Assembly (NCBI GenBank): GCA_964187785.1
Contig: OZ076409.1
Location: forward strand, 38,752,001 to 38,816,000
Source: Amphiscolops sp. MND2022
Taxonomy: Eukaryota
DNA length: 64,000 bases
Direction of reading: 5' to 3'
A program made the translations under genes and the position numbers. A model generated the notes under the pieces. That model was not told the origin of the DNA, ran no database searches, and saw nothing but the letters and a program-made list of their open reading frames with translations. This document shows, piece by piece, positions 1-64,000 of this stretch (its first letter is position 1; the number at the start of each line of letters is the position of its first letter).

Positions 1-3000
1 CCACAGTTGCATCGAAAGGAACGTTTAATGCCATACCCCAAAATGCAACAATAGAGCGAGATGTAACAGCAGAGCTCCTAATCGAGAACGCAGATCCGTC
101 TTTCAAAAACAGCAAAGACATCAAGCGCAGTTTCTCCAAGGCTTTCCCGAAAAAGAAGTTGATGTATGCATTCAGAACAACGAGGAGCCATGTCCATCTG
201 GAATTCCCGACACAAGAAGAATCCAAAGAAAACGAGGAATTATGGAAATCAACTTTCCTGGGCACATATACTACTTGTAGGTGACCACGAAAGCTTCAAA
301 AGAATCACTCCCTTATCATTAAAGACGTCACAAAGGAAGATGTTTTTACGGACATCAAAATGACGGCACTACTACAAGAGAGCTTCCCCGATGCTACTGC
401 TCGTAGATTTGCGAAAAAAAGACAAAAGTACTTCAAGTACTGTCAAAACTGATTTTCTCAACCGCCACGACGTGGAAAGAGCAATAACAAGTGAAATCTT
501 TCTAAACGATCAATTCGTCCGAGCAAATGAGTTCATTGAAGAGGAAAGACTACCAAATGTCCGATGCTATAATTGCCACAACTTCGGGCATATTGCCAAC
601 ACGTGCTAGAGCGCCCCGAAAAGTGGCAAATGTGCAGGAAATCACAGCACTGAAGACTGTAACTCAGAAGAATCCACATGTGCAAATTGCCAATCAAGAC
701 ACGCTTCAAACGATCCCAACTGTGAAGATGACCTAAACCATGCAAGGAAAGTCTATCCCAAAAAAACGTTCCCCTTCCGAGGCACTTACAAGAAAGACTT
801 GAATTCTATACCAGTAATGGCTAACAGGAACTCTTTTACTGTACTGCAGCTAAATCCAACCGGACTTTGAAATGCCAAACAACGACTTCTAAATAATAAT
901 CTCGAAGATCAGAAACCTGACTTTGCTGCGTTGAACGAAACCAAGAAGCAAGTACCCGAAAACTTTTTCACGAACTACCGCACTTTCTCGAGATGTAGAA
1001 GACAAAATCATTACTTTTGGAAGTGCAATCGATTTTATCAAAAAAATAACATGAAAGGAGTTTTCTTTATAGAAGATCTCAATGCCAGAAGCAGTTTTAT
1101 GTTGAGGTTAACCAACAAACAAGATTGGTGGTATTCTGGAGCATTATATCGAGAACAAGCTGGTGAACATACTAAAAAACGGTGAAAAACGTTTTACGCT
1201 GTCAATGGTTGCTCAATTATCGACCTATGTTAGACTACCGACCAACTCACGAATTGGAAGTCAATTTTATTTACTGACACTGACGGGGAGTTACTTTTGG
1301 GTACCCTAGCCGTGGGCACGTCCCGGTATACGCCAAATTTGTTCTGCCGAGCTCGTCTACAACTGAAACAGTTACTACGTTCAAACTTGACGACGTTGAT
1401 TGGAAAAAATGGGGGGACGGCCTAGAAGTGAACTTCGTGATATGTCTTTTCCGGTTGACACAACATTTAAAGACGCCATTGCAGCACGGAATATTCTGAA
1501 AGAAGCAATAAACGGCGTAAACTGAGAATGCATTCCACCAAAATCATTTACGAAACATGGCAAAATTTTCTGGAATGATCAGCTGACACAACTCAGTAAG
1601 GAAGTAAGATCAAACGCGAAAACATACACAAGGACATCCACGCCGCAAAGCAAAACCATGAGGCACTCCTGAAGGCTCGAGCGAGGTTCAAAGAAACACT
1701 TAGCACCTCAGCTTCAAAGTGGACCCTTGGGAAATTGCAAGAAGTCAACCAAGCAAAACACGGAAATGCGTTTTGGAAAAGTATCAAGGGGTCTTTCCCA
1801 CAAATAAGTAATGATCAGATTTCATCCTCACTAAAGTCTAAATCCGGACTCTGTTTTGAAAGTGATCCAAAGGCACGAATACTTCTTGACACCTTCTTCA
1901 GCGGCAAGCATCTGGAAGAAGAAGATTTCGACGTAGACTTCAAGAAATCGGTGAATGATAAGCTGAAAATGAGTTCTTGGAAAACACTGAGGTTATACAA
2001 CTGCAAAATTTGGGCTACAATGTGACTATCAGTTCGCGAGAGTTTAACCATGTCATTGAGACAGTCAGTAAAATGAATTGTTCTTCAAACGATGATTCCA
2101 TTCACCCGCGAATGATTGCAATTTCAGGCCCAACCTTCAGAACCAGCCCAATTAACCTCTTCAATAGTGGCCTAAGTTCTGCGATTTGGCCATGGTACGA
2201 AACCCGAGTACTCGTCTTGAAGAAGCCATTGAAACCTAATTACAGTGAACCTTCCGCATATAGACCTATCTCAAAGACCAGTAACATAAGAGAACGTTCC
2301 GAGAGAATACTTAACAAGCGGCTGATGACGTTCATGTTAGAGAATAGTCTGATTGACCCAGAACAAGAAGGGTTCTTGAAAAACAAGATTACAACGAGAT
2401 CACTTTTCCGATTGAAAATCGAATTCGAAATTATGAAGAAAAGTAAGTTGAAAGCTGCTCTGATAAATCTAGTCTTGAGAAAGCGTTCGATAGCGTCTGG
2501 TATAATGGTTTACTGTTTGAACTTAAGATAGCAGGTAATCGCGGACCCTTATTCAAGATACTCCAAACTTTCCTCAAACATCGGGTGGTCAGAACACGAC
2601 TAGAAGGGCGACTCAGTCATCAAGTACAGCCAAAACAAGGTGTTCCCCAAGGCAGTATGCTATCACCTCTACTCATTATTTTCTATATCGCAGAAATGCT
2701 TACAAATACCACAGGTATCAAGTTCAAGTATGCAGATGACTCGCAAATACTTGTGTCTACTCCTGTGGAAAGCGCGCTTCATCGAATTTTACAGAGGAAC
2801 ATCAACATCGTCGAAAAATATTGCAGGACATGGAGAATTCAGATAGACAGATCCAAAACGGAAATATTGCAAATAAGCTACGATGGTCTGACGACTTCTA
2901 TTTTCACACTGGAAAATGAAGTGTGCAAAGTTGAAAGCAAAACCAAAATTCTGGTCTTGATTGTCGATAATGCTTGTACTTTCAAGGATCACACGGAACT

Positions 3001-3573
3001 GGTGGTTGCCCGTTGCAAGAAGAAATGGAGAGAGCTGCGAATTCATTGTACTAACAGAAGGGGTCTGTCCCAAAACACACGTACTGCTTTATCCATACAA
3101 AACGCTGATTCTACCAACCCTACTGTACTGTGCGCCTGTGTGGTCGAACCAAAAGAAATCCGCTCCTCACCAAATTACTACAGCAGAGAGAACTTTTATC
3201 AAAACTATTTATAAAAAATGAAGGAACCGTAACTTTTGTGACTATCCACAGAAACAAACTGAAAACATTCTACAACAAGAACAACCTTGACATAATTGAC
3301 CCCTTGAGCTACACTGCAAATATCAGTCGAACCCATATACTGCGACAATGGAATTCCAGATGGCAATACACTGACTTGAAACCAACCTTAAAAAATTTGT
3401 TTCCCGAAAAGACCCTGACCCCGCTTTGATAAACTCTCTTTACAGAAGGCACTCATGAGGCTTGCCTTCGAAGTACTCATGGACATCAATCCATCCCTGA
3501 AAAACATTGCCTACAATGAAGCATGAATGCCAGCCCGATGTGCTCCTGTCGCATAACAGAAGAAATTGACGTC
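1..3573 (+). mobile_element. Decayed non-LTR retrotransposon (LINE, APE+RT type; I/Jockey-like), 5'-truncated by the window and 3'-truncated by the gap
   Basis: ORF1 remnant with gag-like zinc knuckles (RCYNCHNFGHIANTC*, then KCAGNHSTEDC, CANCQSRHASNDPNC, ~560-725). ORF2 from ATG 817 (MANRNSFTVLQLN.., LNETK, DLNAR: APE motifs). RT motifs: KKPLKPNYSEPSAYRPIS, EQEGF, QGVPQGSMLSPLL, KYADD (~2200-2750). C-terminal SPMCSC..EE knuckle. Many stops and frameshifts. Confidence 0.9.
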
Positions 3574-4006: not shown

Positions 4007-7000
4007 TAGGCTCAGTCAGCAATCTAAATTATCCAAGAAACTTTTATCGAAACAAAGAAGATGACAGAAAAAAGCAAGAATGAAGTACCGAATTTCGAAG
4101 CCACATTAGACGGAAAAAAATATTTACACCAAAACAATGGCGCGAAAGATTTCGGCAATATACGAAGAGAAAACACAAAATGGACATCACTGAACTAAAA
4201 TGGCGAATTGAATTAACACAAACCGGTTAGTCCGGAAAAGAAGCAGAAATCCAAGAAGACTTCAGATGGGGTCTGTGCCGAAGCACTTTACCAGATGACA
4301 TGGGCGGAATACAAAACAGAGAGCAACAAAATAGCGGTGAAAGACCTAATCCGACTATTCAACGAATTTTTTCTACCAAAACGGAACACCTACCACAACC
4401 GTGGGGAATTCTTCGGGACAAGACAAACCGAATCCGAAACACCAGAAGACTTCTGTCGGAGACTGATAAAAAGAGAAAAAAAAAGTGTATTTGAAGGAAT
4501 AACAGCCGAAGACTTACTTATTTCAAAATTGAAGACCGCAATTATACACGCAAATCTCCGGGACAAATAGATAGAAGAGAAAAAACTGGAACTGAGTAAA
4601 ACAATAGAAATGAATAAACAAAACACATAGGAATGAACAAACAGTAAAAATTCCATACCGGAAGCTCTGATTTCAAGCCGAGAAAAAGAAACAAAAGAAG
4701 AGCCAATACAAAGAATGGAAAGATCTGATGCAAGACTGAAGAACAGTTTTACAAATGAGAAACCATGTAAATTTTGTAACGCACCGAAATGGAACCAAAC
4801 TCACAAATGCCCGGCATTGGGAAAACTTTGCAATAACTGCGGAAAAATGGGACATTTCGCACGCATATGCACACAAAAAGCTACAAACGCAAAGTACGCA
4901 AGGTAACTGAAGACGAATCAGAGGCAATTCCAGGAGAATCCGACGAATCAGAGACAAGCATACACAGAATCAAAAGAATAAATAGAATCACCGACAGAAA
5001 CCAATATCTAACAACAATAGTAAAAGTAAACGGAATTGAGAAAAAATTCAGAGTGGAAACCAGGTCACCAAATTCAATAATGCCCGTAGACGAAAAGATA
5101 ACGAAGCAAACCGAGATACAGAGAGTGAAACACCGGTATCACGGTGTCAAGGTGTAAACAAAAATGAAGTGAAGTTCCGGAGGAAACTACCGGAGAATTT
5201 TGAATACGAGAACAACAAACAGAAAATGCAAATTCTGATTACCGAAAGACACGACATTACACCGCTACTCGGAATGGATGGGATGAGACAAATTCAAATT
5301 ACCAAATGGAAACATCCGAGTGCAGGACAGTAACTAATCAGAAAAGAGACAAATAATCGAGAAGTTCCCGGATCTATTCAAAAATAACACTATGGATACG
5401 GATAAAAGATACTGAGATCAAAATCCAACTGAAAACGGGACATTATCCGCTGAAACAAAATGTAAAACCGATCCCCCTACACTTAAAAGACGACGCCGGG
5501 AGAAAACTGGACAAACTAATAAAAATCGGACTTTTGGAGAAAGTAAAATATGTAGATGAAGACTGTTTTGTTTCACCGGTGATAATTACGGTAAAAAACG
5601 ACAAGTCGGTAAAAATTGCATTAGGTTCGAGAAAACTGAACAACAGTTGCAAAAAAATCCGACCAAACATGCATGCCAAATATGGAAGAACTGTTAAATC
5701 AAATCTCGGTAGAAATCACAAAAGACCAAACGCAAGAACTAATTAAATCGAAAAATGATCTCAACTATGCGTAAGGCCAGATGAAATTATCAATGGAAAC
5801 AAGCCGACAATGTGTATTCGCAACAACAGGAGGAAAGTTTAGCGGATATTACCGATTCAAAAGAGGATCTGCGGTCTTGGCGACATCCCAACAATATTTC
5901 AAGAGAATTTCGATCGAAGTTTGGAATACCCTACACCGGCATGGCTAGACGATACAAAAGTGGAAACCCGAGGCGACCGGAAAGAACACGAAAAGAAACT
6001 ATTCGATGTATTAAAGAAACTAGAAAACACAGGATACCGAGCAAGCGAAAAAAAATCCGAATTTTTCTTAAGGAAATCAAGTTGGCTCGGACACGAAATC
6101 GATGAGACGGGAATCACACCGAACAAAGAAAAATTGAAAGCATTTTTGGATTTGAAACACCCAGAATCTCAAAAACAATTGTAGTCATTCCTCGATGCAA
6201 TACAATACCATGCGAAATTCTTACTGAGACCATCGCAAAAAACGCAGAGACTCCTAAAAAAGGACTCGGTATGGAACTGGGGAAAACAACAAGACGAGGA
6301 TTTCAACAACATAAAAGAAATGTTAACCGAAGAACCCTGGTTAGCACATTACGCAAAGGACAGAAAAAACATCGTTACAACCGACGCTAGTAAAACCGGA
6401 CTCGGACTAATTTTATGGCAGAAACACTCCGATGGAGAAATAAAACCGATAGCATTCGGCAGCAGATATCTAAATGATAGCGAAAAGAATTACTCAATCG
6501 GAAACTTAGAACTACTTGCAGTTGTTTGGGGATTAGAGAAACTCCGATTTTATTTATACGGAAAGAAAGTCTTTTCATATACCGACCACCAAGCACTTGA
6601 ACCCTTGATTAAAAGAAACCGATGTAATAGACAGTAGAGCGCATGACTAACTAGATGGTTAGACCCAGTCGCGCACTTTGATATTGCCATCCAACATATC
6701 GCAGAAGCAATTTAAAATTCACCGACTTTCTAAGTAGAAATCCGGTGGCAAAAGCAGCGAGCGAAGACGTATACGATGAGCAATATGGAAATAACATCCT
6801 TTCAGAACATGTCGAATTAAACGTAAATTACGGACCACTATTCATTGACCAATCACAAAACGCACCGGAAAGAATTAAAACAACCGAAGAAAATCAAAAC
6901 CACCAATCACATCGGAATAGAACGTTTGGGAAAAACCGAGACGTGAACAAAAATTACGATTAGGCGGAAAGCGCATCGAACAAACGCCGACAAAAAGCTA

Positions 7001-15237: not shown

Positions 15238-18200
15238 TCACAAATGCCCGGCATTGGGAAAACTTTGCAATAACTGCGGAAAAACGGGACATTTCGCACG
15301 CATATGCACACAAAAAAGCTACAAACGCAAAGTACGCAAGGTAACTGAAGACGAATCAGAGGCAATTCCAGGAGAATCCGACGAATCAGAGACAAGCATA
15401 CACAGAATCAAAAGAATAAAAAGAATCACCGACAGAAACAAATATCTAACAACAATAGTAAAAGTAAACAGAATTGAGAAAAAATTCAAAGTGGAAACCA
15501 GGTCACCAAATTCAATAATGCCCGTAGACGAAAAGATAACGAAGCAAACCGAGATACAGAGAGTGAAACACCGGTATCACGGTGTCAAGGTTTAAACAAA
15601 AATGAAGTGAAGTTCCGGAGGAAACTACCGGTGAATTTTGAATACGAGAACAACAAACAGAAAATGCAAATTCTGATTACCGAAAGACACGACATTACAC
15701 GGCTACTCGGAATGGATGGGATGAGACAAATTCAAATTACCAAATGGAAACATCCGAGTGCAGGACAGTAACTAATCAGAAAAGAGACAAATAATCGAGA
15801 AGTTCCCGGATCTATTCAGAAATAACATTATGGATACGGATAAAAGATACTGCGATCAAAATCCAACTGAAAACGGGATATTATCCGCTGAAACAAAATG
15901 TAAAACCGATCCCTCTACACTTAAAAGACGACGCCGGGAGAAAACTGGACAAACTAATAAAAATCGGACTTTTGGAGAAAGTAAAATATGTAGATGAAGA
16001 CTGTTTTGTTTCACCGGTGATAATTACGGTAAAAAACGACAAGTCGGTAAAAATTGCATTAGGTTCGAGAAAACTGAACAACAGTTGCAAAAAAATCCGA
16101 CCAAACATGCATGCCAAATATGGAAGAACTGTTAAATCAAATCTCGGTAGAAATCACAAAAGACCAAACGCAAGAACTAATTAAATCGAAAAATGATCTC
16201 AACTATGCGTAAGGCCAGATGAAATTATCAATGGGAACAAGCCGACAATGTGTATTCGCAACAACCGGAGGAAAGTTTAGCGGATATTAACGATTCAAAA
16301 AAAGATTCTGCGGTCTTGGCGACATCCCAACAATATTTCAAGAGAATTTCGATCGAAGTTTGGAATACTCTACAACGGCATGGCTAGACGATACAAAAGT
16401 GGTAACCCGTGGCGACCGGAAAGAACACGAAAAGAAACTATTCGATGTATTAAAGAAACTAGAAAACACAGGATACCGAGCAAGCGAAAAAAAATCCGAA
16501 TTTTTCTTAAGGAAATCAAGTTGGCTCGGACACGAAATCGATGAGACGGGAATCACACCGAACAAAGAAAAATTGAAAGCATTTTTGGATTTGAAACACC
16601 CAGAATCTCAAAAAAAATTGTAGTCATTCCTCGGTGTAATACAATACCATGCGAAATTCTTACAGAGACTATCGCAAAAAACGCAGAGACTCCTAAAAAA
16701 GGACTCGGTATGGAACTGGGGGAAACAACAAGACGAGGATTTCAACAACATAAAAGAAATGTTAACCGAAGAACCCTGGTTAGCACATTACGCAAAGGAC
16801 AGAAAAAACATCGTTACAACCGACGCTAGTAAAACCGGACTCGGACTAATTTTATGGCAGAAACACTCCGATGGAGAAATAAAACCGATAGCATTCGGCA
16901 GCAGATATCTAAATGATAGCGAAAAGAATTACTCAATCGGAAACTTAGAACTACTTGCAGTTGTTTGGGGATTAGAGAAACTCCGATTTTATTTATACGG
17001 AAAGAAAGTCTTTTCATATACCGACCACCAAGCACTTGAACCCTTGATTAAAAGAAACCGATGTAATAGACAGTAGAGCGCATGACTAACTAGATGGTTA
17101 GACCCAGTCGCGCACTTTGATATTGCCATCCAACATATCGCAGAAGCAATTTAAAATTCACCGACATTCTAAGTAGAAATCCGGTGGAGAAAGCAGCGAG
17201 CGAAGACGTATACGATGAGCAATATGGAAATACCATCCTTTCAGAACATGTCGAATCAAACGTAAATTACGGACCACTATTCATTGACCAATCACAAAAC
17301 GCACCGGAAAGAATTAAAACAACCGAAGAAAATCAAAATCACCAATCACAACGGAATAGAACATTTGGGAAAAACCGAGACGTGAACAAAAATTACGATT
17401 AAGCGGAAAGCGCATCGAACAAACGCCGACAAAAAGCTAAAACGGACAGTTCAATCCAAAACTTAAGAATAAATCTGATTCCAAATTCACACTTACCAAA
17501 AGAATTACCTCTATTTAAGAGTGAAATCGACAGAGACTACTTGCATTGCGGCGCAACTGTCGAAATTATGGAGATAATAAGAAGACGAAGAAAGATCCCA
17601 GAAACCCTTAGACTCGTAGAAAGACGGCTGGAAATCTCCCAACCTGGAGCAATGCGCCGGAAAACCGACATGATCGCGCAAATACAAATTTGGGTCCTCT
17701 TAAGACCCCGAAAAAAAGAAGCTGTGAAGAAATTGCAGAGATCTACAGCGAATTGATATCGAAGGCGAACAGATTCGGCGGGGGATTGATATCAACGCCT
17801 TAAAAACGAAGAGAAGAGGAACAAGAACCCCAACAGTCGGAAACAATTGAAGACACCGAACAAGAAAGTGAAGGCGAAAGCCAAGGAATCCGGTGCGACA
17901 ACTTCCCTATCGTCGACCTAAAAGCATATAATACGGAATGAAAAGAAGCCTAGTTCAAACAGATAAACCAAGTCATTGAAAAAGTTACCGGCGACAAGAA
18001 GAGCACTGAAGACACGATCAGAAAGGCCGAGTTTAATTTTATGCTCGACTTGAAGATATTGATTGCAAAATCATCAACGGATGCCGAAGTCAACCGAGTA
18101 CGAGACGCAATGAGACGCGGCGAAAAAAACACGGCTCCGGACCAACACTGAACGATATTCGAGAAGCTGAACAACAAATGGGGGCTGACAATCAACGATG

Positions 18201-20100
18201 ACCAAAAATATTACCTACCGAAGTGAGAAAGAAGCTGCTAGATACTTTACATTTCGGACACGCCGGAGCTACCAAAAGGACAGCAGAGGCCAAAATCATT
18301 CAGTGGCCGAACATTCAAAAAGAAATTGAAGACAAAACAATAAAGTGGGTGGCCTGCATGTCATCGGGTAGAAATTTAAAATATCAAATTACCGAACCAT
18401 GAGTTCCGAAAACTAAAAACATTAACGGAACCGGGACAAGAATTTCAAATAGAGTTTTCCGGAAAATTAAACAACAAAAAACTGAACGGAGAACATCAGA
18501 TACTAATCGCAATGGAGGGATTCAGTAAATGGCCAACCGCCAAAATTTGCAAATCATCGAAAACAAAGGAAGTATTAAACTTTTCAAACAAATTTTTAAT
18601 TTGTACGGATTAGGGGAGAGAAAAAAATTGGACAAAGGGGGGCATTTGTCTCAAAAGAATACAAAGAATTTGGACCTCGAAAAACATCGAAATTGGATAC
18701 AGCACACCGAGAATGCATACCGGTACGGGAGCAGTAGAACGCGCAATACAAACATTGAAGAACCTAATTATTGCAGACTTGGAAGACAACACATGTTTAA
18801 CCGAATGCGTAAGTAGAGCATTGAACGTCATGCAGTTCACAATACATAAGGGACTAGAAACAACACCGTTTGAATTACACCACGGCTGGAAACCACGGAC
18901 CGAAATAACAAACATAATAAAAGACGGAAAATCGTTCCTTTCTAATTGGTCGCGACTACCTGTTTTAGCATACAATCGACCAAAGATACCAATCTATGTG
19001 ACCAGAAATGGTGAAGGAGAACTATCCAACCATGTTATCATGGCCCGAACGAAAATGGAACAGAAGGCAATATCCGAAAAATCGCCGAAGAAGAAAAATT
19101 CGGTTGGTAGATATCCTTTTCAATTCTTTGAAAAAAAAACATAATAGAAAATCATTGGAAGAAAAATTTCAGAAAAACATACAATTAACGGTAAAGGGCA
19201 CGGAGAACACCGTAACCACCGGTACCGGAAAAATAAATCTGAGAAATTTCTTTTCGGATCCGATTGTATTTCAGAATGAAAGAATGACAGCGCCGAAGAT
19301 CGGAGACACCATCACTCCAAAAAACCGACACTGACTCAGAGGAGTCGATGGAAAGTACATCCAATGGAATGAAATCCTGAGAGATGTACTAAACGGAAAG
19401 CTGAAAATTGTACAAAACCGAATCTGACACCGAGAGTGAGGAAGGCGAAAGAGACGAGGAAGAAAGTGATTTCGAGGATCACGATACCTTCGAAAAATAC
19501 GGCCGCAATCGACCAATTACAAAATCCCCCGAGGACGAATTAAACCTACATACGGACGGAGAGATAAATTCTGGTGAGAAACAAACAAATAATAAAATCA
19601 CCGAAAATGAAATAATAAGACGGTCCAACTGTGAAAGCAGATACGGGGGGATTACATATACAAAATTTTCTGGGTGTGAATTAAAAAGTTTTAAATGTCA
19701 CAGGTGTTACTGGCGAAAAATGGAACAACCGAAAAAAAGCACCCAAACCGCTAACGAGGCTTGCAGACTTCATCCGAGAGAAAACCCCAACACCTAGGAC
19801 ATCAAAATTGTAACCGAAGAAGATCCAGAAGGGAGGAATTGTAAAACGGTACACATACCGGATCGATCTTTCGGTGACATTGTCAATCAAACTTAGATCT
19901 TTTCCTAAAGTACCAAAAATAACTTTCATCGAGATACTTATGTTCATATATACTGGTAAACATCATATTTTTGTTTCGTACTGAGATTTTATCATTTGAT
20001 ATAGAAATATAATTAGAGAAAGATTGCGCGACAATCCTTTATGTTCGAAAGAGATTTTAGATAAAATTTTTGTTTTCTTATTCCACCAAGAAATAGAACA
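15238..20100 (+). mobile_element. Decayed Ty3/gypsy, copy 2 (5'-truncated duplicate of copy 1)
   Basis: Same pol motifs and most of the same stops and frameshifts as 4800-9659. Confidence 0.92.
19840..20100 (+). repeat. LTR (261 bp), copy A'
   Basis: Same PPT / TG..CA / PBS context. Confidence 0.9.
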
Positions 20101-27313: not shown

Positions 27314-30300
27314 ATGATCGAAACTGATGACATAACTGTTGATCAAGCTCAGAACTTCATCCGAATGGAGGATTTATTAGCAGCAATGGATGGCGGAACG
27401 CTTGATATGCAGAATCAACTCTGTTACTGTTGCAGTTTCATCATACAGTGCAAGTTAGTAGAATAATCTCGAAGCGATGTCCGATGTTAGAATTTCTCCG
27501 TGTTCAGTTGATTATTATATGTATTTTATATTATTTCTTTCATCCCATATTCGTGGGGAAATTGTCTTCTAATTCACAACAGTAGATTGACAAGTAGTCG
27601 AATACTCATTTAATCTACAGGTCAATGAAAACTAATATGATCAAGTTGAACTCCAGGTCTTGTAAAATTTTTTTCATCGCAATTGTTTACTCATTTCTAG
27701 AGTCTTGACACCGCGAAGTAGCGAATTAGCGGCCGTTCAGCAATTCAAATTAGTGGTAACTAATGTAACCTCCAAAATCAAAATTTCCTCAAAATCTTAT
27801 ACAGTGTTTGAAGTTTAATTTCAAAAATTTTCAACTCCTACTGTAAAACCCACAGTTTAAAAATTCGAGTCTGCTTATCTTGCAAAACTATATCAAGTTA
27901 TTCAATTTTGTCTAACAATTAATAGTTCGGAGACATTTTTCAGCGAAACAGCGATTTTTAAATTAGCGGAAAGATAAGCGATGTCAAAACCCTTTTGTTT
28001 ACTCATCGATTGCTTCGCTGATCTATCAATACTGCTGTTCCAGTGACTGTCTGGGACTCTTTCGATCTCTACCGAAGTTCTTCATTCATAAGGAAGAATC
28101 CTGTTTCACCGACAAAAGTTGCGAAGACGAGTTGAGTTAGTTGTTTCTCATTGGTCAATTAATTACTATCGGATGAACAACAGATGGGGCACAGTGACCA
28201 TTTGATGTTTTTCTTCTCTTCGGATAAACATATAACAGTTTCCAAAAGTAGCTTAACAACAAGCCGGGACCGGCCCAAGTCGGCGCCATATCCAAGGCTC
28301 AAAAATAGCAAAAAGACTTCCAAGTGTCAAGTATTCTCTTTTACAGTACTCGAAAATCGAAAATTTTTTGAAAAAAAATTTCGAAAAAACTACATACTAA
28401 AAAAATGGACCGAGTGGCGCGCTAAAGTCTCACAATGCCGAAAAACTGAAGGGGGGACCCTTTGAGGTTTTTCAACATCCATTCTGTCGCAAAACATGAA
28501 AAAATTGAATAAAACAAAAATTTTTATTTTCGGGAAAAAATCTCACAATGCCGAAAAACTGAAAGGGGGACCCTTTGAGGTTTTTCAACATCCATTCTGT
28601 CGCAAAACATGAAAAAATTGAATAAAATGAAAATTTTTATTTTCGGGAAAAAATCTCACAATGCCGAAAAAACTGAAAGGGGGGACCCTTTGGGATTTTT
28701 CAACATCCATTGTCGCAAAAGATCAAAAAAATGCAGGGGGACCCTTTGGGGGAAAATTTTTTTTCGAAAAAAAGTCTCGCAGTGCCGAAAAAAAATGAAA
28801 GGGGTGACCCTTTGGTCTCGCCCGGTATGGTATGTTACGCGGAAAAACAGGAAAAACTCTTTTGGTTCAGTTCGCTAGGCCAAATAGTGCCATTTGGTGC
28901 AATAATATTTTGTAGAACTTTTAAGAACTATTTTGGTCAGTTCGTGTGGATAGGAAAAAAGAGTCACTATAATAGTCGCGTTTCACTTCATGAAGCGCCG
29001 ACTAAAAATACATGTAAGCGAAAGATATTATTGAATTTAGTTATAGCCTTGAAAACAGTTCGCTGTAGAAAAATAATTCCTTTATTATTAATTAAAGCGA
29101 TTACTTTGCAAGTTGGTCAACTCATTGATCGATATACAAGCAGTCTTCAATATTTTCTTGTAGCGGTATGATGAGTTTTTCAGAGACTTTTTTGGTGAAA
29201 ATTGGCATTCGTTTTACGGTTTTTGCTCACTGAATTGTGAAGATTTAAAATAAAATTATACTATCGCACTTCTCACTACTTCAGAAACTAATACCCTTTT
29301 GTATCTTTTGGACCTTTTGAATCTTTCTACGCACTTCAAGTTTGTTGAAACGCAAGCCCATATTGATATAATTTATTCGAAGCGTCTTAGGTTTTGTTAA
29401 CTAGTCTAACTAGTTTTTGTTTCAATAGCAGCAAATGAAGATTATGCTGCCAGTTTTGAAGCTTCCCAGAAGTCTTCAGTGTTGACCTCTGATCAGTTGG
29501 CACAGAGTGACAACAATGCTGATGTGTTTTTGGAAACAGTGGCGTCATCTGAAGAGCAGACACCAGTGGAAAACAGTAAATCAGACTGCCTAGATCTTGG
29601 ATTTGCTCCCGAAAACATATCTACGTCTGATGGTAAGTTTTCTCTAACCTTCTTATATTTTTTCGCAGCAAAATTCTCAAGTTGACCGTGTGAACTGAAA
29701 CTGTTTGTTAACAAAACCTGCTGTAGTCATGTTGCTGGACATGTCATAGTATGTTAAAGTTGAGTATGCGTTGCTAGCTGCATAGCCTCCTTGCAGCGCC
29801 CAGTAACGGTTACATTTAAAATATCGAATTCCATGATAAGTTGGGAGAATTAAAGAAAAGAACAAAAACTGCTCGTCTAAGAATAAAAATCAAGTCAAGA
29901 ATTGCTCGTTAAAGAGTACCCTGTGGAGGTGTCATTGTGACTGCCTCTCATTTTCTACTGTTGCTGCAATTGCAGAATCAGTCATTTCAGCTTGAGTGTA
30001 TGGCACCCACAAAGGCACAACCGATATTTTCGGAGGTCAACCTTTACTTTCATTCTTATGTAGCCCATTCCATCAGAAAATTGTCTTCGCTCAGCTTGAA
30101 CGCGAGCGGGTCCTGACCTTTGAGGCAGCTCTTCGGGTGGTTACAAAAATTATTGTGTCAGTAACCCTGACAATATTCATCTTCTGTCAAGAAAAGTATT
30201 TATGGGTCGCCGATTGCGTAAGGTTTTCAAAGCTCAACGTGGTTTCATCTGATTTTGCTGAAAACATGTGGAAGTTTAATGAAGAAGTCCACAATCTGTG

Positions 30301-31487
30301 GTATTGATTGCAGAGTAGTTTTTCTATGCTTCTTGTTTAAATTCTCATTAATTGCTAATTCAATTTGTAAAAAGTTTGCGTTTTTTCAAGGTTTTACAAA
30401 TGAAAGTGCACACAAAGAAAGGAGCTCAGAAACGAAGAAAGAGGAGGCCGCGGAAATGATGGAAGAAAGCATGCTGACACGAGAATCAACCAACGACCTT
30501 GATGACACCCCTTTCATCGCAATGCTTGTGGAGTGCGAGTTTTGTTCGGAATTATTTCAGTCCGAGGAAGAAAGGCTGGAGCACATGGCCATCGAATGTC
30601 CTTACGCTGAACCAGTCCAGTATCGTCGCAAGTACGACGACATTGGGGCGGACATTGACGACGGTGAATTATCTCCGAAGCGAAGAAAAGTGGCATACGA
30701 GCAAGATGATGATTTCGAGATACAGCCGAACGTTAAACAAAAGTTCGAAAAGAAGCTAGTTAACCTTTATTGCGAAATTTGCGACCGGCAGTTCAAAAGT
30801 TCAGCGGCCGCGACCAAACATCGCAAAAAAGTTCACAAGGATGGCGAGCTATTCGTCAGTCCGAGCATAAATTCATTCGAGTGCTCCGAGTGTTTCAAAA
30901 ATTACGCAACGAAGAAAAATCTAGAGCGTCACAGAGCTTTTGTTCATGGGTTGACATCTTCTGTAGCTATTCCAGATAAGACCTCCAACAAAAGTAAATC
31001 GACCCAAAGTAGAAAAGAACGGAAAGAAGTTGACTTGAATAACCAAGAGAATACTTCCCCTGTACCAGATGGGGATTCAAGTAGTGTGAAACCAACCAAA
31101 AAGCAAGTATACCATGATTTTTCAACCCCACGCATTTCGGATGAAGAACTTTTGATATATTACGACCATGACACCAAGCAATGCTTAATATGCTGTGGTC
31201 ATTTTGACACTTTAAAAGCAATAAGAAATCATATCAAATATGCTCACGCTGAACACGTGTCCTCTGAAGACATAGTTTTGGAATCCCACGCCAACCGTCT
31301 TCAGAACGAAGTGGCTTCTTTCCCTGAAGAAATGCCTTCCACTCTTCCTGATAGCTACTCTTCCTCCAAATCCAACACCACGGGAGATCGCAATTACGTT
31401 TGTTCTTTGTGTGGAAAACACTTTTACGTCTTACAGGAATACGAAACTCACATTGCTCTGCCACACAAAATAGCAATTAAATCATGA
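27314..31487 (+). CDS. Spliced gene: dispersed C2H2 zinc-finger protein, possibly with a divergent BTB/POZ-like N-terminus
   Basis: Last exon 30391-31487 (acceptor TTTTTTCAAG) has five fingers (CEFC..HMAIEC, CEIC..H..H, CSEC..H..H, CLIC..H..H, CSLC..H..H) and NLS SPKRRKV. Exon 29429-29632 (donor GTAAGT) is phase-matched. Upstream exons 27314-27453, 27621-27656, 27701-27755, 27805-27842 and 28044-28135 join GT-AG in one open frame but are less certain. Confidence 0.78.
28258..29008 (+). mobile_element. Non-autonomous Helentron/DINE-1-like element (HINE) in the ZnF gene intron
   Basis: End 1: AACAA-GCCGG GA CCGGC hairpin followed by subterminal IR AGTCGGCGC. End 2: GCGCCGACT-AAAAA. Central ~115-120-bp tandem repeats (TCTCACAATGCCGAAAAACTGAAAGGGGGACCCTTTG..). 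No TSD. Confidence 0.8.
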
Positions 31488-56280: not shown

Positions 56281-57435
56281 TGTAACGGATCCAAGAAATT
56301 TATGACTGACAGACTTGCAAAGAAATTTTAAAATAACCCGCAAACTGTTCGACTACGACATGAATTTGAGGCTCAAAAATAGCCAGTGCACTATGAAAAC
56401 GCAGAGAAGTTCGAACGAATGAAAGTGAATGTTTACACTATTCTAACCCACGGAATAGCTGGAAAATGTTACAAAACCTGCATGAAAACGTTCAACTTTT
56501 TTGTATTTTTAGGGGCATTTGTGTGCATTTTTCTACTCACAAAAATGCAAAAGTATACATTGAAAGGCGTACTGCATACATAGTTATTTCGTTCGGATCC
56601 TGATGAATGATAAATATTAAACAAAAAAGGTCAAAAAATATTACGGTCCCAAAGAAATTTTCTTTCAACGTTTGTATTTTCTATATAACAGCCTTTTTCT
56701 TATAGTATGAAATTCTCTTCTTTGTATGGGTTCGCTGACTGTTATGATAATTTGGAGTTCAGTAATTTAAAATTACTAAGGCTTTAGGACTACCGTAAGA
56801 GGGATATCTTGAGTGAAAGAGAAAAAGTTATTTTTGCTTTTTGGGGAAGAATTTAAATTAAAATGAAATCAGAGTTAAGAGATGAAACAAAGTTTTAAAT
56901 ACTTTTACAAGTTTACAAACTAACATATTGGGTGGACTATGGGTGGCTGAGTTGGAGTTCTGAATTTTGTTTCTTCTTCAGTTGATTGTTGTTGTCTTCT
57001 GGTTTGTAGCTTCTCCAATTGTTGAAAGATTAGAGATCGATTTTTATTTTTGTTAAACAAGATTAATAAACGGCATGAACACGATAAAACGGGTTCGAAA
57101 GAACAAGATTAAGCTCGCAGAACTCAAAATCTGCAAATCTGCAATTAATTACACTAGGCTCTGGATAAGTCCAGATAATTGAACAAAAACGTAAATAAAT
57201 GGGGATCGGAGTAATTGGACAAGATTTAAATGCGGGGTTTACAAAATACTGTATAAAACACAACACGTTGTAGAACTATCTGTGTAATTATGTGACTGGT
57301 TTTGTACTGATAAGCAAATTTGTATGTAACTTAGAAACATGAATTGTTTTAAGTGCTTTCTTGTTTTGTTTTGTTGCTCCGGCTTTTGTTTACTAGGGGC
57401 CGTCTTTGTTTTCGTGTTACCGCTTGCTTGTCACA
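56281..57435 (-). repeat. Putative 3' LTR (~1.15 kb)
   Basis: Minus strand: PPT AAAGAAGGAAGTGG (57436-57449) then TGTGACA. The candidate end ..CCGTTACA at 56281 gives imperfect TGT(G/A)AC inverted ends. The inner boundary is firm; the outer boundary is tentative because the partner LTR is outside the window. Confidence 0.62.
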
Positions 57436-57468: not shown

Positions 57469-58450
57469 TTATAGATCCGTGAACTCGTGAAGATTTCGTA
57501 GAAACGGGTCGCAACGGCGACATGTCCGCAGACCAATTTCGTTTCGTTGTATTCCAGGAAGGCCACAACAAGCATAGACTTCCTTTAACGTGGGATCGAG
57601 GAGGATCCGTTTAGCTTCCTTGACAAACGGTATGTATTTGCTGGCCGTGGTTGTGGCAGCCTTATTTTTGTCGGGATGTAGTGTATGTACCAGCACGCGG
57701 TAGTTTTCCTGGATAATCTCGGCATAAGACGATGGGTTGCAACCGAGCAGATTGAACAACAAATTATCAGGGGCATCTTCAGGCTCAGGTTGTAAGGGTA
57801 GTTTTGTAATATGGTGAGCAAGCATCCTTTGTAGAATGGGGACTTGGCGTTGGGTGGCAGCTAAATTCCGGAGCGTGCTGAGTTCTTCAGTGAGCTCTAA
57901 AGTCGGTTGCAATAAGGACTCATTCTCCGCTGTAAGGGCGGACAGGCGTTTTTGGAGTGCTTCGTTAGCTGCCTCTAGCTCTTTGGTAGTCTCCAGTTGC
58001 TCACAAAGGACGTCCATGGTCAACGAAGTTTCGCGACGAGCATCCTCAAATGCTTGATTCAATGTAGTAACATCGTCGAAGCGTTTTGTTAGGAACGCTG
58101 CATACTCGTCAGTGTCGACGCAGCATTGAGTACCGGTGTCAGCGGTATCCGGCCAAACACGGGGAGGGGTTGGCTCACAGAGGCAGTTTGGGGTCGGCTC
58201 GTCAACCATGAGACAAGCATCTTGGCTTGCTGGAGGTAACACGCAAATGGCTGTTGATGGGCGCATGAAGCTGCGCTGGTTAGGAGTAGCGTCCATTCGT
58301 CGTAGGACAACAGTCCCACTGTGGGGATTAACACGTAGGACAGTGTATTCACGTTCGTCCAGAATCTGCACGGTGTCGCCAGGACTGATGGAGGCGATTT
58401 TCCCAGAACAGGTGTATAGATTTGCTCCTGCACGGCGCTTGGCGGGGAAC
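57469..58450 (-). CDS. Accessory ORF: N-terminal beta-rich module + coiled coil + C-terminal DnaJ/J-domain
   Basis: Intact ~327 codons. J-domain LFNLLGCNPSSYAEIIQENYRVLVHTLHPDKNK..FVKEAKRILLDPTLKEVY has the HPD motif and helix I-IV pattern. Heptad region LEAANEALQKRLSALTAENESL. Splice acceptor at 58451. Confidence 0.85.
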
Positions 58451-58645
58451 CTGAAACATAACAAAAGATTAAAAGAGACCGATTAGGGTTTTATGTGACA
58501 ATTTAAAGTGTAAAAGGAGGGGTTTTGACGACTGTAAGATGGAAACTGAGATCTTGAGCTACAGAATGATTAAAGCTTTATTTGCGAGAGACAATTCACG
58601 GTTTTATTTTGTAGACTGGACACATAGGTATGGACAAGAATTAGG

Positions 58646-58956: not shown

Positions 58957-61294
58957 CTATGTCGTCGTCTCGGAGTAGTGAGGAGCAGTAACATCTGGAT
59001 AAATTCGTGGAGGAATAATTGTTGGAACTGTATCGGAGATGCAATTAGAGTCACGCGTCATTTGTAAGGTTTCCTTAGCCAGGCCTTGTAGGGCAAGAAA
59101 TTCGTTCTTTGTCAGATAGAGGAACGGCGCGTTATTCTCTATCAGTGAGGGGTTTTCACTGTCGTCCAAGATGTGGATGAATTGGCCTTGGGAACTTGTG
59201 AAGAAACGTTGAGGATGAAGAAACAGACGTTTCCATAGTCTGCGGAAGAGTGTGAAGCTGATAGTAAAAGATAACAAGGAAAGTGTAATGGAAATGCCGG
59301 AAAAGAGTGCGGCTGTACGATAAGGCAAATACGATTGCAGGGCATGTGATGTGGCTGGTGATATTGACGAGTAATGATCTGCGATGGGTTTAGTTAACTC
59401 ATCAATTGCGGTGTTTGTCATTCTATGGACATCAGGAAGCTCCGCAAGCTCCATCTGGACGCTGCCGATAATGGATTCGCGGGCTTCTCCAAGCGAGTAG
59501 GCATGGAAAACATTGCTAGACTGGGGAACATGCTTGAACACTTGTTCAAGTGACGGGGTAAGGGCAACAGTAGCTACAAACGGTTCTGGATGCGTTTCAC
59601 AGAAGTCCATGTCAGGCGACAGTACAAGATCGCCCTGATTGAAAGAGAGCGTACTGGTACAGCTCGGGCGCATTATACAAGCTTGACACATTACAGTGGT
59701 GACTGAGATACCATGTAATCGGCTATCGTTTTTCACTTGCAAGACCGGATCTCTTGAGATTATGTGGTACAAACCATCCGCTAAATAGAATGCCTGTGGG
59801 GCATTTGGTAGGAGTACAGATTGAACGGGACAGTTCCTCAGGCTAGGAATGTCATAGTTGTAGAGTAGGGAACTCAAACAAAGAAGTGTTTCGTCTGTCG
59901 TAGTAGAGAAACCCTTGCGACAGAGTTTGATCCTATTATTCCCTGAGCACTGTTGTAGTGTGGAACCTTCGAGTTCCGCAAAACGGGAGTTGTCCGTAGA
60001 AACTGCCAAAAAGGGCTTTTGAAGCTGGTACAGAGATGCTGTCTTGTTGTCCCCATTCGGTTGATGCAGGGGATCGCGTGATACACATCAAACGTGGAGG
60101 ACTTGGAATTCATAGGAATTCCGAGCACTACTGAGATGCCACGAGGAATCAGTGTGACCTCTAGCACGATGTTAATTTCATAATAGATAGCTTCGTACCC
60201 TGGTTGAATAGCTGGCGATAATTTAGTACCGCGGCGGACTTCATCGTCAGAGAGTTCTTGCACGATGTCCGCAATCTCCTGTGGTAAGAGAAACTGGGGC
60301 GTAATGTGGCCACTCGCGAGAGATGAGATGGTGGAGAACAAGTTAATCTTGTAAGCGTAGAAAGCAGCTTGGTAAGATTTGATGTGAGTGTAGAGAGAAC
60401 CCATGTCTGATATGAAGTTACGAATCTCCTGAAGGAACTTTATATGGACCGTTTCTAATCTTTGGCACTCCTTGTGTGCTACTATCGTACCTTTTATGGT
60501 GCGTACCTCTTTGTCTATTCTGTGTAAATGCTCATTTATTTGGTCCCTTATTTCTTGCAGATTATGTTGTGTTGCTTTGACTTCATTACCGAGAATGAAG
60601 AAATTTTAGGTCATTCCTTGCCTGCACGCGCTGCAGAGTCAAAATGGTCTTCTGTTGGGTATCCAAGACAGCTTCGACATCTCGCGACAACTGGCTGTTA
60701 TCGCTACACATGTTGAATATTGATAACGCTGTACATGCAGCGTCCTTGATCGGATCACCCAAGATTAATCCGGCGCCTGCTCCAATAGCTGCAACAGCGC
60801 CAACAAACCGTTTCTTTCGGGGAGCAGAAACTTCTTCTGTCCTATAAATCTGTGGCAAGAATGACTTCGTTATCTCGGAGAGGCCATTTTGGTCCTTGAC
60901 CGATGCGCTCATCTCCTTTTTTACCAGATTGACTCTTTCTTCCAACTGCTGGACCACTAGACTGTAGGTTTCGTTTATCTTCTCCCAATAACAGCTTGTC
61001 TGGGCGTACATACCGCCGACTGCTATCGTTTGTACTTTGGCTAGAGCCAACAGGCGTTCGACTTCAGTAAGATTCACTTCCGGTATTTTCGGAAACGGGG
61101 AAAACACACGAACTTTGCTCTCACTCTCGGAGGTGACAGCTTGGTACTTGAACAGGAAGGCTGCGCCTTTCTTGAATACAGGGACTTCAGGATTGTCATT
61201 GAGGTGGGTAGAGTAATGCGTAATGGCGACGCAAACTTGAGAAGTGAACAACCGGCAAAGGAGGGTGAACACTTTGTCGTTTGGAAAGTGTCGC
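58957..61294 (-). pseudogene. env: env: class I (F-type) fusion glycoprotein, ~780 aa, with two frameshifts (~60607, ~60065)
   Basis: Furin site RKKR followed by fusion peptide FVGAVAAIGAGAGLILG; heptad repeat; ISSLASGHITPQFLLPQEI motif; Cys-rich block (QCSG..LCRKG..LCLSSL..NC); TM AALFSGISITLSLLSFTISFTLF then RRLWKR. The three ORF-track pieces join after single-base corrections. Confidence 0.9.
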
Positions 61295-61449
61295 CTGAAA
61301 GTAAGAGATATGCGTGAAGGTTTGTATGTGTCCAATTGGTATCGTAGAAATAGATAGAGGATATAGTGTACAAGCTAATGATTGCTAATTCTTCCCGTTT
61401 TATACTTTTTGTTGGTTTTTTGAATATACTAAAGGAGGGAGATGCGAAT

Positions 61450-64000
61450 TCAGGTGCGTTTGCTGTTACGCTTCTGTTTAGAAGTGTTGGGGGAATTGAA
61501 GTCAGTGACATCGTTTGGGAGATTTGCTTTCCATAACGGTTCAGCTCTACGCTGGGCTTGCGTTGATTCGCGAAGTGTGCGTGATCTTGGTTCGGGGAGG
61601 TGGAGAGTACGTGCTGCCTGATGCATAGCATGTCGGTACCAAGGCGAGGTTTCATTAGAGGGAAGATTTGATGAGACGGGGCTGGTCGGGAGGCTTTTCG
61701 TTAACAGGGGTTTGTTGGGGGAGGAATTGAGCCAGCTGGGTGATGTATTCTGGTAGGAAGGTTGGTTGGGAGAAATAGAGGGAAATCGTTGAAGAGGTGA
61801 TTCTGCATGAAGAGGTCCGGATGTTGGGGTGGTTGTTGTGTGAGTGGTGGGAGCGATTGGGGCTGTTGGTGACGCAACAAAAGGAGTAGAAGGTGCAGAT
61901 AAGGGGGTTCCCGGGGTAGCAGATGAAGGTGCGGGCGCGAAAGAAAATGGCCAATTACATTGATCGTGATCAAATGCAGAAGCAGTTTCAGGGTTTTCTT
62001 TACTATGAGGTTTTGGGTTTGCAAACTGACTTGTATCTCGGGTTGGGACATTGGATGTAGGTGGGGGTTCTTTGAATGGTTTCAAGCGATCGTAATGAAC
62101 CACCAATTCCTTTTGAGTTTGTTGGTCTTGAATCCGATAAGTTACGTCGTTAATGTCCTGCAAGATGACATAGGGGCCTTTCCACGGGCTGAAGAACTTC
62201 GATGTTTTGCCAACTGGCACAACTGGATTGTGAAGCAAAACTTTCTGTCCTGCTTCGTAGAGGGGTCCGTGAACTTTGCTGTTATAGATGGCGTTTCGTC
62301 TCTTCTGGTTTTGATTGAGGGCGGACCGAGCCAGTTCGTAAGCCTTTTGGAAGGCTAGTTTGCGCGCGGAGACAAATTCATTCGTATTTGACGCTGGTTG
62401 ATCCTTTGGGTTGGGGTACATGAAATCGATGGGTAATGAAATTTCTTGACCATAGACAAGAAAGTGGGGCGTGTAGCCAGTCGATTCATGTACGGAGGTA
62501 CGATATGCCATCATGACATAAGGCAATTGTGTTGACCAATTGTCCTGCTCGTCGTTCACACACTTTTCAAGCATGCTTTGAAGGGTCCGGTTCATCCGCT
62601 CGATAACAGCGTTGGACTGCGGTCGAAAAGCCGTGGTACGGGTTTTCTCAATCTGGAGAGATTGCATTAACAGTTTGAAGATTTTTGACTCAAAATTACG
62701 ACCTTGGTCACTGTGGATGCTATAAGGAAATCCGAAGCGGCAAATCCAATGTTGTAGCAACGCATTGGCAGTTGTAGAAGCTGTTTGATCTGGAAGTGGA
62801 ATGGCTTCGTACCATTTCGTGAAATGATCTCCAATTAGTAGTATGTGCTGGTTCCCGTTAGACTGCGGCAAAGGACCCAGGAAGTCAATACCAATGTGAT
62901 GGAATGGGTAGCTAGGGGGCCAATCCGAGAGAGAATGCAGGTGTTTCTTTGGAGGGTTGGCCCTTTTTTGGCATTGTTCACATCTACCAATGAATAATTT
63001 ATTATCTTCCTTGAAATTAGGCCAGTAGAAACGTTTTCGTACTTTTTCAGTGGTTTTGAATACACCTAAGTGTCCTCCAGTAGGTGAAGCGTGAACTGAT
63101 GAGAGTATTTCCTGGACCATATCAGGTGGTACTATCTGCTGGAAATAATGATCTCCGGTTTTGATCAGTTCGAAACGTCGGCATAGGATGCCATCTCTAA
63201 TTAACAGGCTCTTTAACTGATTGGCCAGTCGCCAGGTTAGACGGGGAGAACCCTGCAACTCCTTGTTACTCGGTGTTGTACCATCGGTTATCCACTGATG
63301 AACAGTTTTCAGTGCTGGATCTTTCTGCTGGGCGCTTCGCAGAGGGTTTGAATCGTTATCTTGGAGGACTTTAGTCCCTTGAGAAGGCTCACTGATTTTT
63401 AGAGGTGACTTGTCTTCAGGAGCCAGTTGTTTTGTAACTTCTGGTAGAGTGAGAACCGTCACTCGGATTACTGAACCATGAAACAAATCTTGTATCATGT
63501 CCCTTACTTCCTTCCAATCCAATTTGTCGAGACCACATCCAATTCTGGGCAAGCTAATGCGTGTGACATTATTTGTTTCGGCATGGGTTCTCAACGCTAT
63601 GAGAGAGGCTCTAAGGTTCTTGTATGTAGGTTTATGGAAGTAACGTCTTTTCGTTATTAGGTGGTACAGGAATCGCTGAGACTGGTTAATCACCTGGGGC
63701 CAAAGGGGTGCATTGTTAACCATTTCCTTTGTAGGTATCTTCGTCGGGAATTGCAGTTTTAGTTCCTGAGCAATTCCGGAAGACATTTTGAAGTCAGCCG
63801 ATATGCAGTGCGCAATGGAGTCGGCGACCTTCAAAAGGTCTCCTTCCTTCTCGGTGTAGTTAGCTTGGTTTGATCGGTTTGGCCATTCGGACTCGTCTTC
63901 GTAGTAAACTGTTCCTCCCGGCTGATCAACAGGTTCCGGTTGTGTCGAGACTATATTCAATGCTCTGGTTGGCGTGCGGGATAGACCGTCTGCGTGTCCA
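61450..64000 (-). CDS. pol: pol C-terminal part: end of RNase H, TARG1/OARD1-like macrodomain, integrase (HHCC, DDE, GPY/F), Pro/Ser/Thr-rich tail; open at the window edge
   Basis: In-frame HADGLSR at the window edge; EGDLL..SIAHCISADFKMSSGIA..YHLITK..KPTY..ISLPRIGCGLDKLDW; H-ASPTGGH..CEQC; IDFLGP, HSDQGRNFES, AVIERMNRT; WKGPY; no stops over >836 codons. Confidence 0.95.
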   Translation of the reverse strand, partial: GHADGLSRTPTRALNIVSTQPEPVDQPGGTVYYEDESEWPNRSNQANYTEKEGDLLKVADSIAHCISADFKMSSGIAQELKLQFPTKIPTKEMVNNAPLWPQVINQSQRFLYHLITKRRYFHKPTYKNLRASLIALRTHAETNNVTRISLPRIGCGLDKLDWKEVRDMIQDLFHGSVIRVTVLTLPEVTKQLAPEDKSPLKISEPSQGTKVLQDNDSNPLRSAQQKDPALKTVHQWITDGTTPSNKELQGSPRLTWRLANQLKSLLIRDGILCRRFELIKTGDHYFQQIVPPDMVQEILSSVHASPTGGHLGVFKTTEKVRKRFYWPNFKEDNKLFIGRCEQCQKRANPPKKHLHSLSDWPPSYPFHHIGIDFLGPLPQSNGNQHILLIGDHFTKWYEAIPLPDQTASTTANALLQHWICRFGFPYSIHSDQGRNFESKIFKLLMQSLQIEKTRTTAFRPQSNAVIERMNRTLQSMLEKCVNDEQDNWSTQLPYVMMAYRTSVHESTGYTPHFLVYGQEISLPIDFMYPNPKDQPASNTNEFVSARKLAFQKAYELARSALNQNQKRRNAIYNSKVHGPLYEAGQKVLLHNPVVPVGKTSKFFSPWKGPYVILQDINDVTYRIQDQQTQKELVVHYDRLKPFKEPPPTSNVPTRDTSQFANPKPHSKENPETASAFDHDQCNWPFSFAPAPSSATPGTPLSAPSTPFVASPTAPIAPTTHTTTTPTSGPLHAESPLQRFPSISPNQPSYQNTSPSWLNSSPNKPLLTKSLPTSPVSSNLPSNETSPWYRHAMHQAARTLHLPEPRSRTLRESTQAQRRAEPLWKANLPNDVTDFNSPNTSKQKRNSKRT

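Follow-up and report, generated by a model that had tools for sequence, protein, structure and literature searches.

A TARG1-type macrodomain with intact catalytic residues in the pol gene of a Ty3/gypsy-type retrotransposon, a likely eraser of host ADP-ribose marks

Introduction

The pol gene of an env-carrying Ty3/gypsy-type LTR retrotransposon in the genome of Amphiscolops sp. MND2022 encodes, between RNase H and integrase, a macrodomain of the TARG1/OARD1 type in which the catalytic residues are intact. On balance, the domain appears likely to be an active eraser that would be made and packaged by intact relatives of this element and would clear host ADP-ribose marks from element RNA, cDNA or proteins. 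The fusion is real, conserved and recurrent rather than unique. The element lies on the minus strand of what is called here the window, a stretch of 64,000 nucleotides (contig OZ076409.1, positions 38,752,001 to 38,816,000) of a host genome of 1.07 Gb.

The retrotransposon and its defects

The domain order protease-RT-RNase H-integrase, with the protease taken from a sister copy and from relatives, fits Ty3/gypsy elements (Metaviridae). The element has a target duplication of 4 bp (TAGA), and a primer-binding site starting with TGG follows the 5' LTR. When the window is read together with the adjoining genome stretch, Pfam places RT_RNaseH (residues 48-150), macro (about 207-348), Integrase_H2C2 (452-510), rve and p58_C in a single frame without stops, and the open frame spanning RNase H to integrase measures 1011 aa. 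The in-frame position claimed in a preliminary description of this DNA is thus correct. The parts of the element that lie in the window are collected in Table 1.

Table 1. Features of the macrodomain-carrying element, in positions of the window
Feature	Position	Strand	Basis
RNase H last motif and linker	63868..64000	-	RNase H domain itself just past the window end (L009 2036-2344)
TARG1/OARD1-type macrodomain (P0001, 144 aa), inside pol	63436..63867	-	Sequence match and predicted fold
Ser23 in AHCIS, equivalent of human Ser35	63799..63801	-	Alignments
Lys73, equivalent of human TARG1 catalytic Lys84	63649..63651	-	Alignment; invariant in the 93-row alignment
Gly112 in GCG loop, equivalent of human Gly123	63532..63534	-	Alignments
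Asp114, equivalent of human TARG1 catalytic Asp125	63526..63528	-	Alignments
Integrase zinc-binding domain	62956..63132	-	Pfam Integrase_H2C2, E 2.7e-19
Integrase core (rve)	62620..62907	-	Pfam, E 6.4e-10
Integrase C-terminal part (p58_C/SH3) and Pro/Ser/Thr-rich tail up to the pol stop	61450..62619	-	Pfam, reading frames
Env-like gene, split over three overlapping frames	58957..61374	-	Reading frames, sequence features
Extra ORF, coiled coil and DnaJ domain (HPD motif retained)	57469..58482	-	Pfam DnaJ, E 1.7e-9
3' LTR	56684..57435	-	98.1% identity to 5' LTR at L009 3805-4550, beyond the window

The window copy is a defective relic, and it is unlikely to make the macrodomain protein itself. 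Relative to the sister copy on contig C2, to which it is 98% identical, about 2.65 kb of gag-protease is deleted; a frameshift has put RNase H out of frame with RT, and env is in three pieces. The sister copy is likewise broken. The env-like gene encodes a hydrophobic stretch after a basic, cleavage-like site, as well as a C-terminal hydrophobic segment; it had no match in Pfam and nothing significant in a PDB sequence search. Atlas features on the env of a relative (L057) gave Baculo_F/Fusion_gly at 0.95 with low recognition, which is a weak lead towards an F-type env. The ORF with coiled coil and DnaJ domain, the fourth of the element and located after env, was also noted at L052 1986-3131 and L010 4732-5727 and occurs in a second family; its product is possibly a recruiter of Hsp70.

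The window contains other sequences as well. A 421-aa frame on the plus strand (30222-31487) with several C2H2-like zinc-finger motifs is probably the exon of a host gene. A LINE-type RT and another gypsy element have left fragments at 1962-3214, 6185-6637, 16624-17076 and 18614-19144, and one RNase H piece among these occurs twice, about 10.4 kb apart.

A domain of the TARG1 type within pol

All three motifs quoted in the preliminary description were located at the position given there, on the minus strand, and the assignment to the OARD1/TARG1 family was right. In a phmmer search of PDB sequences, residues 7-141 of the domain matched human OARD1/TARG1 with an E-value of 7.2e-32, the second-ranking family being of the DarG type (E 8.5e-4). 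A macro fold is also predicted. Folding of the single sequence was poor (pLDDT 61) and an alignment-based model was used instead; with the 93-row alignment as input, AlphaFold2 produced a model with a pLDDT of 89 and a pTM of 0.86. The top eight PDB entries retrieved with this model by Foldseek are all TARG1, with TM up to 0.86 and 41-43% identity, and are followed by DarG. Both the catalytic Lys and the catalytic Asp are retained, as had been claimed, together with the equivalents of Ser35 and Gly123, which we take to be ligand-pocket residues. The Pfam Macro profile, proposed earlier as a check, does detect the domain, but weakly, with 20.4 bits against a cut-off of 22. Most macrodomains of these elements score below this cut-off, which is probably the reason why such domains get overlooked.

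The available parts of the literature describe catalysis by TARG1 as dependent on Lys84 and Asp125 (PMC9411070, PMC7050489, bioRxiv 10.64898/2026.03.31.715305). The human enzyme is described there as removing ADP-ribose from acidic residues and nucleic-acid ends (PMC7050489), and most efficiently from RNA bases by means of a basic patch (bioRxiv 10.64898/2026.03.31.715305). This RNA-docking patch, Lys50/Arg86/Arg126, reads Leu/Arg/Lys in the window copy, so that two of the three basic residues are retained. Across 58 element places, Arg occupies position 50 in 27, and the residue at the Arg86 position is basic (Arg or Lys) in 55.

With human TARG1 (also OARD1 or C6orf130; PDB 4J5Q, 4J5R, 4J5S, 2L8R; ALC1-like class) the element domain therefore shares its fold, its level of identity and the equivalents of Ser35, Lys84, Gly123 and Asp125. 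TARG1 is, however, the product of a stand-alone gene, whereas the element domain sits in a retrotransposon polyprotein, has the Lys50 to Leu change and is at present only predicted to be a hydrolase. The DarG antitoxin (PDB 5M31, 5M3E) resembles the domain in class, fold (TM 0.82-0.85) and catalytic Lys, but is only 20% identical; in the available text of PMC9411070 it has no Lys/Asp dyad, unlike the element domain.

Four architectures in one genome

A protein search of the genome yielded 991 macrodomain candidates, and all of the 150 that were scored matched. RNase H lies upstream in 26 of the top 30 loci, 25 of these having integrase downstream as well, while the other four have neither. Four different architectures can be distinguished. 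The first, RNase H-Macro-IN, occurs in env-carrying families; one of these has an open pol of 1646 aa and an LTR identity of 99.7%, and 13 of its 31 matches lie at 99-100%. The second, Gag-protease-Macro, encodes 834-845 aa without RT or integrase (L053 4830-7331, L094/L095, L054). It is a high-copy family with 120 candidates in the genome (40 scored, at 95-100%), and its LTRs of about 1.94 kb are 99.1-99.2% identical. The high similarity of their LTR pairs marks these carrier families as recently active. In the third architecture, protease-Macro-RT, the domain lies within a pol of about 1850 aa of a gypsy family (L091-L093). The fourth, integrase-Macro, has the macrodomain at the C-terminus of a gypsy pol, and an antisense JmjC-like ORF is present within the LTRs of the same element (L056 524-5908 and 6844-7743). 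The RT regions of the latter two are only 28-32% identical to the RT of the RNase H-Macro-IN elements. The caveat voiced in the preliminary description, that the fusion may prove to be common, does apply, given the many families in this genome and the carriers in other animals.

Selective constraint

In 58 distinct element places, which include many near-identical copies, the equivalent of Lys84 is found in 57 (the remaining one being unaligned), that of Asp125 in all, and those of Ser35 and Gly123 in 57 each. When eight family representatives are compared, 20 of the 144 positions are invariant, among them these four, at an identity between families of only 41-54%.

The ratio of dN/dS differs according to the lineage. 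In the window lineage, compared with four decayed relatives, it is 0.19-0.27 for the macrodomain, 0.04-0.08 for RNase H and 0.15-0.61 for the linkers; the macrodomain is thus much less constrained than RNase H and no more constrained than the flanking linkers. In the Gag-protease-Macro family it is 0.18 for the macrodomain versus 0.49 and 0.52 for the flanks, based on 23 copies and on non-independent pairs with dS over 0.15. The macrodomain is therefore retained in elements without RT or integrase.

Origin of the domain

The macrodomains of the RNase H-Macro-IN and Gag-protease-Macro elements form one group, with support (94/97) just short of the starred level. The host itself possesses a single-copy TARG1-like gene (L090 4556-5500, minus strand) with an N-terminal extension of about 170 aa for which there is no Pfam match; a look-alike protein of this gene was also noted (P0129). 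In the phylogeny against host OARD1 that had been suggested, the host gene clusters with lamprey OARD1 (support 96/92), yet a tree constrained to place it among the elements cannot be rejected (AU p 0.079). A recent capture from the host's own gene is disfavoured by this grouping and by an identity of 39% to the domain of the window, although the constraint test would still allow this gene as the donor. A single clade for all elements with a bridge macrodomain, that is, one located between RNase H and integrase, is rejected on the RT-RNase H tree (29 rows, L123 and L126 being left out as too short; AU p 1.7e-61). There must therefore have been repeated gain or repeated loss.

Homologues in other organisms and the errantivirus bridge

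Among other sequences, 3181 cluster representatives match at E-values up to 0.001. The best 150 of these include 53 proteins of 250 aa or more, 11 of which carry retroelement domains; named carriers are the sawflies Athalia rosae (XP_048515211.1) and Neodiprion virginianus and the whelk Nucella lapillus. The same macrodomain class is present in an insect RNA-virus polyprotein and in other invertebrate-virus proteins, and the 53 proteins also comprise fusions of TARG1-type domains to the DNA-repair enzymes PNKP, ligase III and UDG. A PHD-Macro-GDSL protein was found too, with a layout that presumably resembles LINE ORF1. Gypsy-type pol in records labelled bacterial (Brevinema, Wolbachia and Fibrobacteria; P0150/L185, L184, L186) is probably mis-binned host DNA.

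In the pols of sawflies and in other errantivirus-like pols, intact or eroded macrodomains occupy the same place, the bridge between RNase H and integrase. Two of them are present in the Athalia pol: the intact one scores 121 bits and the eroded one 53 bits, for which 500 shuffles gave at most 5. The strand order quoted for a bridge domain named 'pseudo-RNase H' is, in our understanding, the strand order of a macrodomain. In the survey of Chary and Hayashi (eLife 2026; PMC13524379) the errantivirus bridge is described as variable, and mini and 'pseudo-RNase H' domains are listed. The latter is reported there for almost all insect errantiviruses, and beetle elements with two tandem pseudo domains appear in the table (PMC13524379). 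A parallel has been drawn between this domain and the duplicated RNase H of vertebrate retroviruses. The surveyed elements share with the present one the LTR-gag-pol-env layout, the variable bridge and possibly an F-like env; they differ in that the bridge is described as mini or 'pseudo-RNase H', the word 'macro' being absent from the main text (PMC13524379).

Gypsy bridges were sampled from 81 loci, a biased set, as the query was built from macro-bearing pols; both ends of the bridge are present in 57. Four of these 57 bridges score 153, 132, 44.5 and 12.5 bits with the macro profile, and the remaining 53 at most 1; all four belong to elements with an F- or gB-type env. In hhalign, five eroded bridges gave 99.4% (E 6e-21) against macro and 0.1% against RNase H. 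For the weakest eroded bridge the top five PDB matches are TARG1, at non-significant E-values of 0.56-0.69. For five bridges of a different type, the comparison with macro yielded 2.8% (E 0.016) and that with RNase H an E-value of 0.66, and a PDB sequence search with this type returned nothing significant. When the eroded sawfly domain was used as the query for homologues, a single further protein was retrieved. Judging from these comparisons, which involve sequences other than Chary and Hayashi's own, some errantivirus bridge domains are probably macrodomains. The activity seems to be dispensable for many elements, since the eroded versions in other gypsy lineages have lost active-site residues and 53 of the 57 bridges have no detectable macrodomain.

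Possible function

The pol products of Ty3/gypsy elements are translated as a polyprotein and packaged. On the basis of this biology, the macrodomain of intact relatives would be translated as part of the Pol or Gag-protease polyprotein and would enter the particle together with it. Since the catalytic residues are retained, the packaged domain would be likely to hydrolyse ADP-ribose from element RNA, cDNA or proteins, RNA being as plausible a substrate as cDNA, integrase or chromatin. The opponent would be a PARP-based host defence that tags components of the element. Host PARPs are plausible candidates for this role. The genome has 32 PARP-domain matches among 41 candidates (exon-level and not gene counts), and three of the five host ORFs that were scanned are fusions of PARP domains with a superfamily-1 RNA helicase. 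These are candidate RNA-sensing ADP-ribosyltransferases. They are long single-frame ORFs, ZNFX1/UPF1-like and with one or two PARP catalytic domains (L190 1532-7474, L192 1805-8002 and L195 1337-6823, on C4 and C13).

In the preliminary description the enzyme was proposed to travel with the pre-integration complex and to have cDNA, integrase or chromatin as its target. An anti-ADP-ribosylation role is still the best reading, but such a delivery is not supported over the alternatives, as other elements have the domain between protease and RT, behind integrase, or in a Gag-protease polyprotein with no RT or integrase. A particle-borne eraser of marks on element RNA, cDNA or proteins is more likely than an integrase-specific tool, because the domain is retained in the absence of integrase and in invertebrate RNA viruses. 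Alternatively, the domain could remain attached to integrase and bind or remove PARP1-type marks, either at the integration gap or on target chromatin. Its location next to integrase in two of the four architectures, the fusions to PNKP, ligase III and UDG among the 53 longer homologues, and the interaction of TARG1 with PARP1 given in the available text of PMC7050489 would agree with such help in integration. We nevertheless consider it unlikely, in view of the purifying selection in elements that encode no integrase, the lineage with the domain between protease and RT, and the occurrence of this class in RNA viruses that do not integrate.

Less likely still is a reader or RNA-binding module, in which binding of ADP-ribose or nucleic acid aids packaging or localisation and catalysis is incidental. 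The persistence of eroded copies that keep the fold in other errantivirus-like pols and the basic character of the Arg86 position in 55 of 58 places are in line with this; against it, both catalytic residues are present in all eight family representatives of this genome. That the domain is a neutral passenger, a captured piece of a host gene carried as a folded spacer, is very improbable: the linker-like constraint in the window lineage and the unrejected placement of the host gene (AU p 0.079) would allow it, but the active-site residues are invariant across families that are only 41-54% identical, dN/dS is 0.18 in the RT-less family, and the domain recurs in gypsy lineages that are not monophyletic as a group.

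Known systems and wider meaning

The reading as a packaged eraser of host marks has counterparts among viruses. The macrodomains of coronaviruses and alphaviruses, according to the available text of PMC7729036, are likewise embedded in polyproteins and counter host ADP-ribosylation; they are, however, distant structural matches (11-14% identity for alphavirus) and belong to RNA viruses without a DNA stage. Fish epsilon-like endogenous retroviruses carry macro-domain ORFs (Basta et al. 2009, as cited in the available part of PMC4977317). They too are LTR retroelements with a macro domain, but they are Retroviridae and have the domain in additional ORFs, its class being unstated in that part of the source (PMC4977317). 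The literature search, which covered neither Repbase nor GyDB and few subscription journals, turned up no gypsy Pol described as having a TARG1-type domain. Macro domains of retrotransposons are reportedly mentioned in reviews of repeat databases, and prior annotation is therefore quite possible.

Counter-defence enzymes that an element has captured are good indicators of the defences of its host. A likely eraser that is conserved in recently active retrotransposons, and that is kept even by parasitic elements which have lost RT and integrase, suggests that invertebrates use ADP-ribosylation against transposons beside piRNA. The element domain, a protein of 140 residues, can easily be assayed, and it offers a testable re-reading of a domain that has just been described as a second RNase H. 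It is tempting to speculate, as a tentative and on present evidence rather doubtful generalization, that ADP-ribosylation is an old, unrecognised invertebrate defence against LTR retrotransposons, in which RNA-helicase-PARP fusions write the marks and TARG1 domains, repeatedly placed in gypsy polyproteins by the elements, erase them, and that the 'pseudo-RNase H' of insect errantiviruses is the eroded fossil of this macrodomain and not a duplicated RNase H. Further ORFs of a size similar to the helicase-PARP fusions are present elsewhere in the genome.
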